From Candidatus Poribacteria bacterium (GTDB lineage Bacteria; Poribacteria; WGA-4E; WGA-3G): a stretch of 64,000 nt of DNA. The stretch covers positions 92,862 through 156,861 of the forward strand of contig JAJDUH010000044.1 in NCBI GenBank assembly GCA_022826805.1, given 5' to 3'. The position numbers were made by a program, and so were the translations under genes. The notes under the pieces are model-generated. The model had not been told where the DNA came from and searched no databases. It was given only the letters and a program-made list of their open reading frames with translations. Positions 12,980 to 60,195 of this stretch are shown piece by piece (the stretch's first letter is position 1; each line of letters opens with the position of its first letter).

Positions 12980-13063
12980 AAAATGTAAGGCAAAGACAAA
13001 TTTTGCGGCGTAAATCAGAATCAAAATCAACGGTATGAATGCCTTATGGCATGAACTGCGGGC
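12980..13063 (+). repeat. H-family mosaic hairpin element, copy H1 (modules AATGTAAGGCAAAGACAAATT + AATCAGAATCAAAATCAACGGTAT + hairpin GAATGCC-ttat-GGCAT)
   Basis: Modules are shared with the copies at 14634, 17706(-), 30865, 33429, 54329(-) and 60157(-). Confidence 0.75.
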
Positions 13064-13116
13064 AAAATTTGGTCCATCAACAATGGTTGAAATCAGAGCA
13101 CTAATGTGTCCAGTTT

Positions 13117-14633: not shown

Positions 14634-14698
14634 CAAAAATCAACGGTATGAATGCCGTGTGGCATTCACCGCCCCTTATCAGGGGGACTTTAAGAAGC
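14634..14698 (+). repeat. H-family element, copy H2 (TCAACGGTAT + GAATGCC-gtgt-GGCATTC + terminal CCCCTTATCAGGGGGACTTTAAGAAG)
   Basis: The modules were compared directly with H3. Confidence 0.75.
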
Positions 14699-17669: not shown

Positions 17670-17810
17670 TTATCCATTTGAGCGCACACTCCCCAGCAAG
17701 CAATTGGAATGCCACCAAATTCTGCCCACACGGGCAGAATTTGTCTTTGCTTCACATTGCCAATGTTCGGATACGCTGTGCAAGTTGGAGTGTGAACGTA
17801 CAAGTGTCAT
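17670..17810 (-). CDS. candidate 46-codon leader ORF containing Trp-Trp-His (speculative)
   Basis: I translated the minus strand by hand as MTLVRSHSNLHSVSEHWQCEAKTNSARVGRIWWHSNCLLGSVRSNG. The WWH codons lie at 17709-17717. The Shine-Dalgarno is weak, and the ORF overlaps an H-family repeat copy. Confidence 0.3.
   Translation of the reverse strand: MTLVRSHSNLHSVSEHWQCEAKTNSARVGRIWWHSNCLLGSVRSNG
17706..17760 (-). repeat. H-family element, copy H7 (AATGTGAAGCAAAGACAAATT + hairpin AATTCTGCCC-gtgt-GGGCAGAATT)
   Basis: The module matches H1 at 19 of 21 positions. A perfect 10-bp stem is present. Confidence 0.65.
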
Positions 17811-18000: not shown

Positions 18001-18021
18001 ATATGTATTACAATCGAATAA

Positions 18022-18215
18022 GCTGAACGGTTCAGGTGCCGGAAAAGCCGGAGAATAGGGAAGCGCGGTGAGAATCCGCCACGGCCCCGCCACTGTGAAC
18101 GATCATAAATATCCACTGAAAAAACCACTGTCAATTTACTGATGGGAAGGTTCAGCGGACTTTTGTAGGTGCAAACTACGTAAAAGATCGGAAGTCAGGA
18201 GACCTGCCTGAATCG
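18022..18215 (+). promoter_or_regulatory. cobalamin (B12-element) riboswitch aptamer
   Basis: The core is AATAGGGAAGCGCGGTGAGAATCCGCCACGGCCCCGCCACTGTGA, which includes the B12 box. Also present are CCACTG...GGGAAGG and GTCAGGAGACCTGCC. P1 is TTCAGG (18031-36) paired with CCTGAA (18207-12). Confidence 0.9.
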
Positions 18216-18355
18216 CGTTTCACACATCTGCTTTCGCGGGAAAGCAGTGGAACAGCGCGCAGCAATATCCTGTTAGACTACGGATCAAATACCAGCATAA
18301 GGTATGGAATTCTCACACATCATTACAGGATAAGACTTACACAGAATGTCGCCGT

Positions 18356-22069: not shown

Positions 22070-23767
22070 ATGAAGCGAATTCAATTTTTTACTCTGCTCT
22101 GTCTGTTTATCGTGTCGTCCATCAGTATTGTGACAGCCGATATGGACATCACATGGGTACGGACAGGTGTCGTACTTGAAGTTCAATCCAAAGACGGTGT
22201 TAAAGGCGAAATCAACGTCGCGACGATGTCCAAGGGCACAACGCATCCGTTAACCGAGCCCCCCACAATCCAACGAATTGATGCAAACCGTGTTCTGCTA
22301 CAGTTCGTTTGGCAACCGAACGAGAATTACCAATTTCGCTTGCGTAATAGCGAAATAACGACGACTTCACCGCTGAAGCCGGAACCCTATCTTATCCGTA
22401 CCGTTGCGTTAGATGGACTTCTATCGTTGATGGAAAACCTACGTCAACCCGCAACACCATCAGCAGTCGCCTTAGGAATCGGAAACGTGTCTAACAGAGA
22501 AAAATTGGCAATTGCGACGAACAGTGGTCACCTTGCGATCCTGCAGCCAATTACGGGTGAAACGCTTTGGAAAACTCGCATTTCGGAAGGCTACGTGAGA
22601 CGAATGGCGTTCAGTCCTGATAATACCTTGCTCTACGTTGGGGAACAGGCAGCAGATGGATTCATTTACTGCTACGATCTCACAGGTGATACACTAACAC
22701 TCCGCTGGAAATATCGTACCGCTGACGACATTGAAACCTCCACACCAAACGACCCAGGCAGTGTCTACGCATGGGTAAGCTACCCGGGTCCGTCTTGCAT
22801 GCGAACACTGATGGACGGCGATCTTCTGGTTGCGAGTGTACATTCATGGACAGAAAACGGGACGCCACTTAAGAAATCTCAACTCTATAGACTTGATAAC
22901 GAAACAGGAAACGTTATCTGGAAATGGCCCCATGACAGCGCGATCTCAAGAATAATTCGCTGGTTTGACGTAAGTGCTGACGGAGAAACAATCGCACTTG
23001 TAACAGATGCCGGACACAATTTACAAGGAGCGACAGGTAAAAACGGTGCTGGCAACGGAAAACTTGCTCTCCTTAACGCGAAAGATGGATCAGAAAAATG
23101 GCATACCGATATTGAACCCCTAACCCCCTATTTCGCACAGGTTACGTTTTGGCGTGGGGTGAGCGTATCGCCTGATGGTAAGTTTATCAACGTCACAACG
23201 GACGACGGGCGGGCATTCATTTTCGACGCGAATAAGCCCGAACCGATATGGAGCGAAAACTTGACGACCCCATTAGAGGTGAGCGGTATCCCGATTGTTG
23301 CAACTTCAGGAACAATTGGAGCGACGGATGCCGCGGCACTCTTTGTCACTGGCGATACATATATCCCCTATCATCTCCGAAAAGGCGCGCAACGACCTTC
23401 GGCATCACACCCAAATGGGATGACGCTGTTCGCCTACTCGTGGACCGGTGAAAAAGTCTGGCAGTGGCAACTTGAGAACATGCCACAAGGCTTACGGATC
23501 GATGCGAAGGATCGCTATGCCCTGTTATCTGTTTCTAAGCGTACTCAGGATCCAAATGAGAGTCTCCACGGCGTGTCGATGTTTGACCTGACAGCAGAAG
23601 GAAGCGGTTTATCGAAATACCTATATACCTACCGCACAGAGGGGCAACTCCCTTATGATACACTCGCGATTAGTGCAGATGGTGCGCTTGTCGTTGTGGT
23701 TGAGGTGCCGACCGCGATGCCAGATGAGACGCTGCGCGGGAAGAACCGGGTGCATGTGCTGTACTGA
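22070..23767 (+). CDS. secreted PQQ/WD40-like beta-propeller protein
   Basis: A signal peptide is present. Repeated motifs are G.TLWKTRI, GNVIWKWPHD, GSEKWHTDI and GEKVWQWQL. Confidence 0.8.
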   Translation: MKRIQFFTLLCLFIVSSISIVTADMDITWVRTGVVLEVQSKDGVKGEINVATMSKGTTHPLTEPPTIQRIDANRVLLQFVWQPNENYQFRLRNSEITTTSPLKPEPYLIRTVALDGLLSLMENLRQPATPSAVALGIGNVSNREKLAIATNSGHLAILQPITGETLWKTRISEGYVRRMAFSPDNTLLYVGEQAADGFIYCYDLTGDTLTLRWKYRTADDIETSTPNDPGSVYAWVSYPGPSCMRTLMDGDLLVASVHSWTENGTPLKKSQLYRLDNETGNVIWKWPHDSAISRIIRWFDVSADGETIALVTDAGHNLQGATGKNGAGNGKLALLNAKDGSEKWHTDIEPLTPYFAQVTFWRGVSVSPDGKFINVTTDDGRAFIFDANKPEPIWSENLTTPLEVSGIPIVATSGTIGATDAAALFVTGDTYIPYHLRKGAQRPSASHPNGMTLFAYSWTGEKVWQWQLENMPQGLRIDAKDRYALLSVSKRTQDPNESLHGVSMFDLTAEGSGLSKYLYTYRTEGQLPYDTLAISADGALVVVVEVPTAMPDETLRGKNRVHVLY

Positions 23768-30438: not shown

Positions 30439-30864
30439 ATAGCCTTGTTAATGCCCTCTGAAGGGCACAAGGCATAGATGAACAAGCAATACAACACCGC
30501 ATAACATTACCGCGCACCGTAAATTTGAGGTGCGAGAAAATTGCTTTTGCTCTGTTAAAATTGATATGTCGATTTTGCATTCTTGTTTTCTTTATGAGGT
30601 TCAGATTATTGTGCGTGGTATCTATACGCGCTGCACGTTTCACTTGGTGCCATTAAACAAAAAATGCTAAAATTTGTCAACATTTTTGGGGTCATCGATG
30701 GCTACAAATGTATAATCGTTTGAATGTTGCGGTCAGGAGACCACTCCTACAGGATAGGATACCAATTCCCTCAAAATATACAAGCATAAAAATCCAGAAT
30801 GTGCTAAACTATGGTGAAGTTTAGAATTAATTAGACACTATAAATGCACACTCAACCCCCTAAC

Positions 30865-30992
30865 GAATCAGAATCAAAATCAACGGTATCAATGCCTTAA
30901 TGGCATTGCCCGGGTATAAAGCCTATAAAGGCTTTACCGGGGTATGAATGCCTTATGGCATTCCCCACCCTTATCAGGGGGGAATTTAGAAG
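30865..30992 (+). repeat. H-family element, copy H3 (leader + three hairpin modules + terminal module)
   Basis: The element reads GAATCAGAATCAAAATCAACGGTAT, CAATGCC-ttaat-GGCATTG, CCCGGGTAT, AAAGCC-tataa-AGGCTTT, ACCGGGGTAT, GAATGCC-ttat-GGCATTC, CCCACCCTTATCAGGGGGGAATTTAGAAG. Confidence 0.8.
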
Positions 30993-31073
30993 TTTCACCC
31001 ACCGAGAAGTGTTTATTTATTTTTAGATTTTACCATAATTGTAAACTGGAGTCCGGATAATAGGAGAAGAAAC

Positions 31074-33317
31074 ATGGAAAAATGGACAATATGCTTAGCA
31101 ATAATTCTCTGTTTCGGGGTTGCATCCCAAAATACCAGTGCAAAAAAACTCACATTAGACGATATTTTCCCAACCGATCGGGTCATAGACGTACAGATTA
31201 CGATCTCGCAGCGGGATTGGGATACAATTCGGTTTCAGTCGCGGGATATCAGGACAGCACTCAGCGCTTCGCGGCAATTTGCGCCGATGGAGAGTCCGTA
31301 TAGCTACGTTGAAGCAACTGTCAGCATCAATGGCGTTGTTTTCCCGAAAGTTGGGTTGCGTAAAAAAGGGTTCATCGGTTCGCTCAGTCATACTCGTCCG
31401 TCTCTCAAGATCAAACTAAATCATGTCAATAAAGAGGGTGAAATTGAAGGGTTAACGAACCTAACACTTAATAACAACAAACAAGACACAAATCTAATGA
31501 GCCAATTTATGGGATATGCGCTGTTTAATGCGATTGGATTGCCGGCACCGCGATGCGCTTATGCGAAAGTGACTGTGAATGGCGAAAATCTGGGGATATA
31601 CTCACACGTGGAAACTGTTCGGAAACCCTTGTTGGAACGCGCCTTCGGGAACAGCGATGGTCCCCTCTATGAAGGGACAGTTGTAGACTTTTACAAAAAT
31701 TGGGAGAACAGTTTTGAACATAAACGGGGTGATGACACACGCGGCAGAGCACACATTAAGGACTTGATTGACCTTCTGTCGGACCCGAAAGCAACAGAGG
31801 CTGAGATCGGTGAATTGGTGGATTTGGAATTATTCTATAAATTCTGGGCAGCTGAAAGTTTAGTCGGATTCTGGGATGGTTACTCCGGAAACAAAAACAA
31901 CTTCTTTGCCTACTTGAACCCTGAAGACAACAAATTTTACTTCATTCCGTGGGGGATGGACTCCATCTTTACCAAGCAGAGCAAACTTGAGTTCATGAAT
32001 GACCCACGGGCACCCATATCTGTAAAGACACAGGGTCTGATCGCCTACAAGTTGTATCAATTCGAGGCAGGACGGCAACGCTATAGAGAAGTGCTCACCG
32101 AGATTTTAGACAAACACTGGAATACAGCAGAATTGTTAGCGACGTTAGACAAAATCGCTGTGATGGTCGAGCCGCATTTAGTGCCTGCTCAGCGTGTGAT
32201 TGCGGAAGAATGGAGCAGAGGCAGAAATTGGGGAGCACCCAAGCCAACTTTTGAGAGCGAATTAGCGGCAGCACGCAACTTCATGCACAATCGCAAAAGT
32301 GATATAGAGAAAGAAATTGCGAACGGGATGCCGGTATGGAACAAACGCCCCGACCCGCCGTTCGCTATTCCTGAAAATGGCGATTTCATGGAAGGATTCC
32401 TAAAATCAATAGAAAACACCTTAGTAGGTGCTGCGCGTATGGGGAATATCGAAGCCATCAAACGTTACATAGCGGAAGGTGCCAATGTTAATGATATGCG
32501 TTTTGAAATGCCACCGTTGGCATGGGCAGTGATGATGGGACAGACAGCCGCCGCTGAACTCCTACTTCAACACGGGGCGGATATCAACGGCAGAAACACG
32601 GACGATAACACGGCTTTGCATCTCGCAGTATTCTTAGGACATGCTGAAACTGCCGAGCTGCTTCTAAAGAACGGTGCTGACGTAACTGCAAGAAACGACG
32701 ACGGGGCGACACCTATAGATATGTTAACGGTCCCTTGGGAAATGACAAAGATGTTATCGGAGCCGTTAGGCATAAAGTTGGAACAGAAGCAGGTCGAAAT
32801 GGGAAAAACCAAGATTGCTGAGATGCTCAATGTGAAATCATCAAACTTATCTAAGGGAAAAAGCACTCTCCCGGTAGAAGAGGTATGGGATGCAGCATCC
32901 ACAGGTAATCTCAATGTGGTGAAACAGGCAATGGCAAATGGAATGGATGTCAACATGAAAGACCCAAAATCGGGAGGCACGTTGTTGGCTACTGCCGCAC
33001 TGATGGGACACACGGAAATTGTGGCATTACTTCTCGCACACGGTGCGGATGTCAATGCGAGAAGCAAAGATGGTGGAACAGCTTTGCATGCGGCGGCTTT
33101 TCTTGGGCGGGTCGAGACAGTGAAACTCTTACTGGATAAAGGCGCGGATACCACGCTTCGGCATAAGATGGGCGGTACAGCGATAGATGGTGCGAAACTG
33201 AACTGGCTGTTGACGAAGGGGATACTCAGCACGATGAAAATCAAAGTAGATGCGGCAGAAGTAAAAGTAGGACGAGCCGAAGTTGTGAAACTCATTACTC
33301 AGCACAATAAGAGATAA
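31074..33317 (+). CDS. secreted CotH kinase-like domain protein fused to two ankyrin-repeat blocks
   Basis: A signal peptide is present. CotH-like motifs include PSLKIKLN, LTLNNNKQD...M..F.GYALFNAIGLPAPR and KNNFFAYL...FYFIPWGMD. ANK consensus repeats are present (G.TALH.AA..GH.E...LLL..GAD). Confidence 0.85.
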   Translation: MEKWTICLAIILCFGVASQNTSAKKLTLDDIFPTDRVIDVQITISQRDWDTIRFQSRDIRTALSASRQFAPMESPYSYVEATVSINGVVFPKVGLRKKGFIGSLSHTRPSLKIKLNHVNKEGEIEGLTNLTLNNNKQDTNLMSQFMGYALFNAIGLPAPRCAYAKVTVNGENLGIYSHVETVRKPLLERAFGNSDGPLYEGTVVDFYKNWENSFEHKRGDDTRGRAHIKDLIDLLSDPKATEAEIGELVDLELFYKFWAAESLVGFWDGYSGNKNNFFAYLNPEDNKFYFIPWGMDSIFTKQSKLEFMNDPRAPISVKTQGLIAYKLYQFEAGRQRYREVLTEILDKHWNTAELLATLDKIAVMVEPHLVPAQRVIAEEWSRGRNWGAPKPTFESELAAARNFMHNRKSDIEKEIANGMPVWNKRPDPPFAIPENGDFMEGFLKSIENTLVGAARMGNIEAIKRYIAEGANVNDMRFEMPPLAWAVMMGQTAAAELLLQHGADINGRNTDDNTALHLAVFLGHAETAELLLKNGADVTARNDDGATPIDMLTVPWEMTKMLSEPLGIKLEQKQVEMGKTKIAEMLNVKSSNLSKGKSTLPVEEVWDAASTGNLNVVKQAMANGMDVNMKDPKSGGTLLATAALMGHTEIVALLLAHGADVNARSKDGGTALHAAAFLGRVETVKLLLDKGADTTLRHKMGGTAIDGAKLNWLLTKGILSTMKIKVDAAEVKVGRAEVVKLITQHNKR

Positions 33318-33428: not shown

Positions 33429-33530
33429 AAATCAGAATCAACGGTATCAAGTCCGTGTGGACTTGCCCGGGTATGAATGCCTTGAATCAACGGTATGAAG
33501 TGCTTATGCACTTCCCCGGGCATTCCCCGT
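33429..33530 (+). repeat. H-family element, copy H4, containing a unit nested in the loop of another unit
   Basis: GAATGCC (33475-81) and GGCATTC (33519-25) are separated by GAATCAACGGTAT-GAAGTGC-ttat-GCACTTC-CCCG. Confidence 0.75.
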
Positions 33531-53824: not shown

Positions 53825-54212
53825 GCCGAGACTACAAAGCCCCGATACTTTAAATCACAGTTCGCTTTCTATTTCATCCTACCAAAACGCGAACTAACAC
53901 ACTTCACAAAATAGACACCCTGTTAGCCAGTGCTTCGTCAAGTTTGATTTGATGGAGAGCAGTCGGGATTTGGAAATCCCTCCTACCGGTAGCAGTTAGG
54001 TTTCTTGTGAAATCTAACCGTCCTTTTAAGGTGAACAAAGCACCAGATGCCACGTTTACAGCCAACGATAGAAAAATTTGGCAATACTTATAAAAACAAA
54101 AAGTTTCGGCTATTAAGTACTACCAAACTCGAAAAACGGAACTTAAGAGAGAGTTGTTGCCTTAGAAATGCTGACTGCTATAAACTATTGTCCTGACTAA
54201 AACTTACGACTA

Positions 54213-54297
54213 TGGGCGAGGAGGGACTTGAACCCTCACGAGGCGTAACCCCAATAGATCCTAAGTCTATCCTGTCTACCAATTCCAGCACCCGCCC
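54213..54297 (-). tRNA. tRNA-Leu (anticodon TAG)
   Basis: I hand-folded the cloverleaf. The acceptor is GGGCGGG/CTCGCCC, the anticodon arm is ATAGA-CTTAGGA-TCTAT, a long variable arm is present, and the T-arm is GAGGG-TTCAAGT-CCCTC. Confidence 0.9.
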
Positions 54298-54328
54298 AAA
54301 TTTTGTTCCACGGACTCTCACTGCGAGA

Positions 54329-54484
54329 CCGGGGAATGCCATTAAGGCATTCATACCCGGTAAAGCCTTTATAGGCTTTATACCCGGGGAATGCTTTATA
54401 GCATTCATACCGTTGATTTTGATTCTGATTTACGCGCATTCCGCTGTTGGTTGACGCGGCAAAATTTATTTTTCCCTTACATTC
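54329..54484 (-). repeat. H-family element, copy H5 (full mosaic: AATGTAAGGG... module, leader, three hairpin modules)
   Basis: The reverse complement aligns module by module with H1 and H3. Confidence 0.8.
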
Positions 54485-54502
54485 GTCCTAAATTATAAGG
54501 AT

Positions 54503-54575
54503 TGCGCCGTGAAGGAATCGAACCTTCAACCGCCTGATTAAGAGTCAGATGCTCTGCCAATTGAGCTAACGGCGC
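54503..54575 (-). tRNA. tRNA-Lys (anticodon CTT)
   Basis: Hand-folded. The acceptor is GCGCCGT/ACGGCGC, the anticodon loop is CTCTTAA, and the T-arm is GAAGG-TTCGATT-CCTTC. Confidence 0.9.
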
Positions 54576-60156: not shown

Positions 60157-60195
60157 ACCCCGGTGAATGCCCTAAGGCATTCATACCGTTGATTT
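60157..60195 (-). repeat. H-family element, copy H6 (single hairpin unit)
   Basis: The reverse complement reads AAATCAACGGTAT-GAATGCC-ttag-GGCATTC-ACCGGGG. Confidence 0.75.

Follow-up and report, generated by a model that had tools for sequence, protein, structure and literature searches.

A lineage-restricted family of minimal, probably mobile hairpins forms nested stacks in Candidatus Poribacteria genomes

The hairpin repeats found along a 64-kb stretch of Candidatus Poribacteria DNA (the whole of the 64,000 nucleotides that were analysed, called the window throughout) belong to a real, large and lineage-restricted family of minimal mobile hairpins, and the mosaic arrays that they form look like Russian-doll stacks. 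The element is called H, and we consider it very probable that H is a non-coding, non-autonomous mobile DNA hairpin of about 35 nt that is moved by a trans-acting protein and stacks in hairpin loops. With 35 nt, no gene and one hairpin, H is among the smallest mobile DNA elements known and tests the lower size limit of such DNA. How elements of this size move has been asked ever since the first description of the cyanobacterial SDRs.

The H element and its arrays in the window

The genome that holds the window, G000, is a Candidatus Poribacteria MAG of 5.09 Mb in 80 contigs, with 47% G+C and a completeness of 94%. Units of H were parsed by exact pattern, and whole genomes were counted via the fixed flanks of the element. 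Exact parsing of the 64-kb window recovered six H arrays with 12 hairpin units, all of one element, and the core motif AATCAACGGTAT occurred 7 times in the window versus 0.36 expected by chance. The first-pass annotation had listed seven copies of a family assembled from four modules; six of the seven hold H, and the remaining one (17706-17760, -) contains no H unit and is an empty copy of a host repeat, family a. Nor do the modules belong to one family: AATGTAAGGCAAAGACAAATT and CCCCTTATCAGGGGG-A-TTTA-GAAG are parts of two unrelated host repeats that are often free of H, and AATCAGAATCAAAATCAACGGTAT is a run of RAATCA hexamers plus ACGGTAT. What had been read as a mosaic of modules is instead a single 35-nt element that was inserted repeatedly, one copy within another, into host repeats and into H itself.

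Tokenised arrays from the whole of G000 defined the H unit as RAATCA-ACGG-TAT-S7-L4-S7'-MCCG (R = A/G, M = A/C), with a length of about 35 nt. The 5' tail of the unit is 7 nt long (RAATCA-A). A closing stem of 3 bp (CGG/CCG) and a small internal loop, in which TAT faces A or C, lead to the main stem of 7-8 bp, which is capped by a tetraloop. Two minimal 35-nt elements are present in the window. That at 14637-14671 (+), with the sequence AAATCAACGGTAT-GAATGCC-GTGT-GGCATTC-ACCG, lies in a host of family b2 and folds as single-stranded DNA at -10.4 kcal/mol (z = -5.3), and that at 60161-60195 (-) lies in a unique, non-repeat context. The single unit, formed by a leader and one GAATGCC hairpin, was also the commonest form genome-wide, accounting for 43 of 157 arrays. 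At least twelve stem variants were found, each with its own usual loop, and among them GAATGCC was dominant; the others were GAAGTGC, AAAGCC, GAAGTCC, GAAGCCC, GAAGCC, TCATGCC, CAATGCC, CTATGCC, TAATGCCC, CAAGTCC and GAATGC.

The remaining four arrays of the window are compound. The array at 30865-30967 (+) consists of three RAATCA hexamers and three hairpin units with the stems CAATGCC, AAAGCC and GAATGCC; it folds as DNA at -26.4 kcal/mol (z -6.0) and is located in the central loop region of a ~230-bp TIR-bounded repeat of family b1 that spans about 30810-31037. At 33429-33529 (+), within a host of family d (GCAAACTAAC...TGCACTACAAAAG) of which empty copies exist in G000, a CAAGTCC unit is followed by a GAATGCC unit that carries a complete nested element in its apical loop, at 33470-33527 (GAATCAACGGTAT-GAAGTGC-TTAT-GCACTTC-CCCG), and the nested fold of this array has a z of -5.85. 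The array at 54330-54431 (-; z -7.4) has three hexamers and three hairpins (GAATGC, AAAGCC and GAATGCC) and sits at the centre of an element e/g (CAACCAACAGCGGAATGCGCGT...GGTCTCGCAGTGAGAGTCCGTGG), and that element in turn occupies the loop of a host-a copy. The resulting stack of three levels (54290-54510, -; H within e/g within host a) is found between tRNA-Leu (54212-54298) and tRNA-Lys (54503-54575), and must be co-transcribed with the tRNA cluster. Finally, the array at 13012-13058 (+), in the loop of a host-a copy at 12982-13072, has three hexamers and one hairpin with the hybrid arms GAATGCC/GGCATGA, which probably reflects the deletion of two hairpins from a stack.

Stem covariation

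The stems of H vary and yet stay complementary, as the first-pass annotation had noted from a handful of copies. Circularity was avoided by selecting units by their conserved flanks only, with the expected value obtained by dealing the 3' arms at random; perfect 7-bp stems were present in 206 of the 290 units so chosen, versus 36 expected. Across an alignment of 80 distinct 27-nt units, pairing was seen in 91.6% of cells versus 64.8% in shuffles, double-sided changes numbered 119 versus 37 expected, and 0 of 500 shuffles reached the observed values. When the partner column was shifted by one, pairing fell to 42%. Mismatches within the stems were equally often G.T (12) and A.C (13), giving no sign of RNA-type wobble tolerance, and selection on the stems at the RNA level was rejected on the grounds of this equality. 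The structure of H seems to be important in the DNA itself, or solely while a copy is being made.

The sequences had been described as unrelated to any known family, and none of the H arrays matched Rfam 15 at the gathering score, the sole match being at chance level (E = 0.12). The window-wide Rfam scan separately identified a cobalamin riboswitch at 18017-18225 (+) (RF00174, 105.6 bits).

Genome-wide placement and orientation

The genome-wide scan revealed 212 leader motifs and about 300 hairpin units in G000, so that the family is large and by no means confined to the window. Of the leader motifs, 93% are intergenic: 198 of the 212 fell outside crude ORFs, and such ORFs make up 87% of the genome. 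The earlier description of the copies as intergenic, among them the one between tRNA genes, is confirmed. The class of intergenic region that holds H tracks the total length of such regions, and gene 3' ends are not preferred. Relative to co-directional flanking genes, H was in the opposite orientation in 67 cases and in the same orientation in 42.

Neighbouring H units in G000 are strictly co-oriented, with 149 pairs on the same strand and 0 on opposite strands. Successive arrays also shared orientation more often than not (68 to 44, p = 0.03), and there was a weak association between H orientation and GC skew (48/42/41/23). Long same-strand H blocks of hundreds of kb were observed in G057 (contigs C2, C3 and C4), a genome of a second genus, and in G007 (contig C1), and each G057 contig has one switch of H orientation, from '-' to '+'. 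A replication-direction bias was considered and rejected: judged by dnaA positions, the same-strand blocks in G057 and G007 fit no single origin plus terminus, and GC skew from 20-kb samples was too noisy to decide the matter. An unrelated palindrome of G000, GCATGTAT-TGCGTGA-AAAC/GTTT-TCACGCA-ATACATGC, gave 36 matches, 18 per loop reading, which correspond to about 18 sites, none of them in the window.

A proposed single-element origin of the mosaic arrays

We infer that every mosaic array is a Russian-doll stack of single H elements, and that a resident copy would offer three unpaired places of entry: the apical loop, the site immediately 3' to the stem, and the part of the leader that directly follows the hexamer. 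Entry after the hexamer with replacement of the next two bases (RAATCA/AC/GGTAT, slashes marking the junctions) would produce RAATCA-(RAATCA-ACGGTAT-S-L-S'-MCCG)-GGTAT-..., and would thereby generate both the tandem RAATCA runs and the MCCG/GGTAT connectors. Entry just 3' of the stem would give the junction S'-A/GAATCA... that is observed among the arrays, and entry into the apical loop would give the nested form.

Such a model predicts that the number of hexamers should equal the number of hairpins in every array. The two numbers were equal in 111 of 149 arrays (r = 0.88) and differed by one in 27 more, and many of the exceptions come from crude counting, for example where GGTAT is mutated or an array has been cut by another insertion. 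Other exceptions, the array at 13012-13058 among them, combine surplus hexamers with hybrid stems, as expected from deletion between neighbouring hairpins. The same composite arrays were found in different host families, and one three-unit composite of the window, 96 nt long, has a counterpart of 97% identity in a different setting (contig C12), which suggests that stacks may also move as units. The model further predicts that the 3' units of a stack are the older ones; the trend in imperfect units was as predicted but non-significant (7/57 versus 13/57).

Host repeats, empty sites and the insertion rule

The repeats that host H are diverse. Family a has long inverted arms (CAAATTTTGCCGCG-TGT-GGGCAAAATTTG), and family b (AACCCCCCTAA-CCC-CCCTTATCAGGGGGG) is contained within the ~230-bp TIR-bounded element; right-hand halves of family b number seventy in G000, and about half of these are empty. 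Empty b1 copies read ...CCCCCCTAAC-CC-CCCTTATCAGGGGGG and empty b2 copies read ...CCCCCTCAA-TC-CCCCTTATCAGGGGG. Further hosts are families c, d, e and g and a long-loop variant of a GTAG REP (family f), and H also occupies the REP found on either side of the class-1 RAYT genes and the terminal hairpins of an IS605-type TnpB element. In all, at least eight unrelated hairpin-forming repeats host H, including MITE-like elements, two kinds of RAYT-associated REPs and IS605-type ends, and each of these host families is also represented by many empty copies in G000. Copies of one host subfamily, for example b3, share identical H units.

Filled and empty copies were compared at 53 sites for which an exact-anchor empty paralogue was available, these partners being paralogues and not true pre-insertion alleles. 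Two target nucleotides were replaced at 39 of the 53 sites, one at 5, three at 3, four at 4 and none at 1, and the single value of eight was an artefact. No target duplication was seen in any of the 53 pairs, and the replaced nucleotide pair was mostly made up of pyrimidines. One pair of this kind is contained in the window itself, where the filled copy of host a at 12982-13072 has its empty partner at 17715-17758 (-; AATGTGAAGCAAAGACAAATTCTGCCC-GTGT-GGGCAGAATTTGG).

There is no fixed target word, as the left flanks end in GCGT, GCAT, TAAC, TAAA, TTGC and others. When the flanks of 63 isolated sites were joined, 75% folded with at least five flank-to-flank pairs, versus 40% in controls with shuffled partners (maximum 51%) and 44% at nearby positions. 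This difference indicates a preference for hairpin loops: H favours the loop region of existing hairpins, although not exclusively. The loops of H are in turn targets of another, TA-type mini-transposon, since a MITE of ~130-210 bp with the inverted ends ATGAAGATTAATTTATTAATTCGGTAATG.../...CATTACCGAATTAAATTCTGAAACTTCAT sits in the TTATA loop of an H hairpin with the stem TCATGCC. Both sites of this MITE are outside the window (G000:C7:83724-83930 and G000:C16, about 23078-23320).

Distribution across the phylum

The leader plus the stem frame was used for counting H in 151 genomes of the phylum. H was found in two sister genera of one family, in 50 of 56 genomes of genus g1 and 37 of 38 of genus g9, with 0-387 copies per genome. 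The other 20 genera had none or at most four matches per genome, most of which were not H units, and a reversed-pattern control gave 0-1. Coding identity between species is only about 78-82%, and yet neither the leader nor the dominant stem differs between genera; such identity despite the divergence of coding sequence points to continued copying under sequence constraint and not to inherited fossils. The orthologues of the gene at 31074-33317 all belong to Candidatus Poribacteria MAGs, which places the host among sponge-associated poribacteria and led us to reject a cyanobacterial origin, at first suspected from flanks rich in heptamers. At the locus of this gene, the two flanking arrays were absent from the orthologous position in every other species. 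A metagenome scan for a same-species contig suited to strain comparison returned none, the best match reaching 84% at the amino acid level, and our literature search turned up no description of repeats of this kind from Poribacteria.

H looks different in G057 (genus g9), where lone GAATGCC units with loops of 5 nt occupy a constant position in one composite repeat (loci L140-L169, contig C2), the arms of which are tandem word arrays of the type GCGGATTAC / GCGGATTGAC.... In this genome H may largely hitch-hike, and part of its copy number would be owed to this. Together with its hosts, H occupies much of the intergenic space of Poribacteria MAGs and breaks assemblies, and these elements could serve as strain markers.

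The search for a mobilising enzyme

A search for a RAYT gene had been proposed along with the original description of the repeats, and four full-length RAYT-like genes are indeed present in G000; each is flanked by its own, different REPs and none by H. Three belong to class 1 (L015, G000:C33:10612-11205; L016, C27:116106-116552; L017, C57:96584-97051), each bordered by its own REP, CTATACACCTATC-GCCCC-GCT-GGGGC, in two inverted pairs; this repeat has only about ten copies in G000. The fourth, of class 2 (L018, G000:C71:108260-108730), is flanked by classical GTAG REPs (GTAGGAGCGAGC-loop-GCTCGC). None of the five Y1_Tnp (PF01797) matches in G000 has H within 1.5 kb.

Among genomes, RAYT-type Y1 genes are present in most, and within the genus Y1 counts do not follow H counts: G008 has 12 such genes and 3 H motifs, versus 5 genes and 212 motifs in G000. 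Across the 151 genomes of the phylum neither RAYT class follows H, and RAYT1 and RAYT2 both occur in the H-free genera g3, g5 and g6. The searches recovered no RAYT1 from G155 (297 H) or G057 and no RAYT2 from G017, G021, G125, G057 or G059, and neither G057 (97% complete, 4 contigs) nor G059 gave any Y1 match; both of the latter carry 100 or more H copies. All of these genomes are MAGs (G000, G017, G057 and G059 being 94-97% complete), in which failure to find a gene does not prove that it is absent. With the same qualification, G000 yielded no IS110-type gene and no IS200-type TnpA, G017 no IS200-type TnpA, and the H-rich G000, G057, G071 and G075 no match to reverse transcriptase (RVT_1). 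About 17 TnpB (IS605 OrfB / Cas12f-like) genes were observed in G000, and one TnpB element (G000:C8:73030-74760) has H in both of its terminal hairpins.

Several candidates were set aside on the evidence of each search. An autonomous copy of H was rejected, as nowhere in G000 do an H leader and an H tail enclose a gene, and what lies between H arrays is either an ordinary gene or a TnpB with its own end hairpins invaded. RAYT or IS200 as the mobiliser was not supported, because no Y1 gene of G000 is flanked by H and because the distribution of such genes across genomes does not match that of H; a reverse transcriptase or IS110 was rejected because neither was found in G000. A Y1 HUH enzyme, RAYT- or IS200-like, is still the most obvious candidate, but the data support neither resident RAYT class, and no known enzyme is tied to H by these data. 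The rules followed by H are nonetheless clean, with a fixed unit, two bases replaced without duplication, strict co-orientation, a preference for hairpin loops and hexamers equal in number to hairpins, and these rules, together with the sharp phyletic boundary, make the search for the enzyme tractable both comparatively and biochemically.

Alternative explanations

The explanation that we prefer is that H moves as one specific DNA strand folded into its own hairpin, and that a protein acting in trans would insert this strand into single-stranded target DNA able to form hairpins; copies that had lost the ability to fold would not be propagated, leaving the many co-varying stem variants. A somewhat unlikely departure from it is that something other than a known transposase is responsible: either the replication or repair machinery of the host or an enzyme not yet described would splice in a free 35-nt hairpin strand and swap exactly two nucleotides. 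The target would then be the unpaired bases beside a stem in single-stranded DNA. This possibility is raised by the finding that no Y1 HUH, reverse transcriptase or IS110-type gene follows the distribution of H, and, if true, H would define a previously unrecognised class of minimal mobile DNA, to which the Nostoc SDRs would probably also belong. We regard it as unlikely that H is an ordinary REP/BIME, namely a divergent GTAG-type REP with 'GTAT' by its stem, made and spread by a resident RAYT (TnpA-REP). Its size, hairpin, extragenic placement and high species-specific copy number are those of REPs, GTAT adjoins the stem where REPs have GTAG (PMC3733652), and besides the four full-length RAYT-like genes of G000 there is at least one Y1 gene in each H-rich g1 genome examined. 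However, those RAYTs keep their own REPs and H is a guest in the loops of both REP kinds, either RAYT class can be present in genera that have no H and was not found in some genomes rich in it (G057 and G059 having no Y1 match), alternating or inverted doublets number 0 of 149, and H has no terminal GTAG or CGTC.

Less probable again is the idea that H has no mobility of its own and is a module of larger MITE-like repeats, spread by their copying. Nearly all G057 copies do occupy one fixed point of one composite repeat, and identical H units recur within host subfamily b3 of G000, but a module would hardly be expected in at least eight unrelated host families that each have many empty copies, or in unique contexts and inside its own loops, and the equality of hexamers and hairpins and the constant 2-nt replacement point to one unit that entered repeatedly. 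Very little probability attaches to H as a small retroelement that moves via RNA and reverse transcriptase, with target-primed reverse transcription giving the 2-nt loss. R2 elements lose 2 bp of target, and H likewise shows a small target deletion without duplication and a short repeat at one end; against this, RVT_1 was not detected in the H-rich G000, G057, G071 and G075, the stems have no G.U-type asymmetry, and there is one hexamer per element in place of a variable tail. It is just as improbable that H is a functional structured RNA or cis-regulatory hairpin (a terminator, an mRNA stabiliser or a processing site) under host selection. The strong covariation and the intergenic positions, including one inside a tRNA cluster, would suit such a role, but copy number ranges from 0 to 387 among related species at sites that are not orthologous, H takes both orientations relative to genes (67 opposite, 42 same) in region classes that follow region length, it lies inside other selfish repeats, and it has no T-run, no Rfam match and as many G.T as A.C mismatches.

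Comparison with known systems

In its behaviour H resembles REPs and the Nostoc SDRs, yet tests on the defining features of REPs, BIMEs and REPINs place it outside all three. REPs are tagged by a terminal GTAG or CGTC tetranucleotide or by listed degenerate forms (Di Nocera 2013, PMC3733652), and a cognate rayt gene has one copy of its REP on each side, the two in inverted orientation, its presence correlating with REP abundance (Nunvar 2010, PMC2817692). Like these, H is a short (20-40 nt) extragenic stem-loop of high copy number, with 35 nt and 93% intergenic placement, and it shares with them a short conserved tag by a 6-9-bp stem, compensatory variants, hundreds of species-specific copies and presumed status as non-autonomous mobile DNA. 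It differs in having an invariant GGTAT by the stem and ends of the form RAATCA.../...MCCG, GTAT not being among the listed degenerate tags (PMC3733652). It also differs in that no RAYT is flanked by H or correlated with it, in that H enters the loops of the genome's true REPs, stacks inside itself and makes a defined 2-nt target replacement.

A BIME consists of regularly spaced REPs in alternating orientation (PMC2817692). The first-pass annotation had called the arrays BIME-like, and the likeness holds only loosely: H units are all co-oriented and never alternating or inverted (149 same versus 0 opposite), no Y1 gene is H-flanked, and RAYTs do not track H. In REPINs the replicating unit is an inverted REP doublet that forms a long hairpin (Bertels & Rainey 2011, PMC3116915), whereas H is usually a single unit and has no inverted doublets. 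Some REPs lie in small palindromes (PMC3733652), and the insertion sequences ISPsy8, ISPa11, ISPpu9/10 and ISRm19/22 target REP hairpins (Tobes & Pareja 2006, PMC1525189). H also lands in the palindromes of other repeats, but those insertion sequences are full-size and protein-coding and H is a non-coding 35 nt.

Elements of the IS200/IS605 group move as single strands by the 'peel and paste' activity of the Y1 HUH TnpA, inserting 3' of a fixed tetra- or pentanucleotide with no target bases lost. H resembles them in its strand specificity, in a hairpin plus short single-stranded tail as the recognised end, in the lack of duplication and in single-stranded, hairpin-prone DNA as the substrate; it differs in having no fixed target word and in the 2 nt replaced in 39 of 53 pairs. 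Another parallel is found in Nostoc punctiforme, where Elhai et al. in 2008 reportedly described SDR4-6 as hairpin mobile elements of 21-27 nt located within each other, in mini-transposons and near tandem repeats; we know of no enzyme identified for them. In these traits H is similar, being also very small, nested in itself and in mini-transposons, adjacent to short tandem repeats, and represented by filled and empty sites, while it belongs to another phylum, so that homology is unlikely, and is built as a fixed hexamer-plus-hairpin unit.
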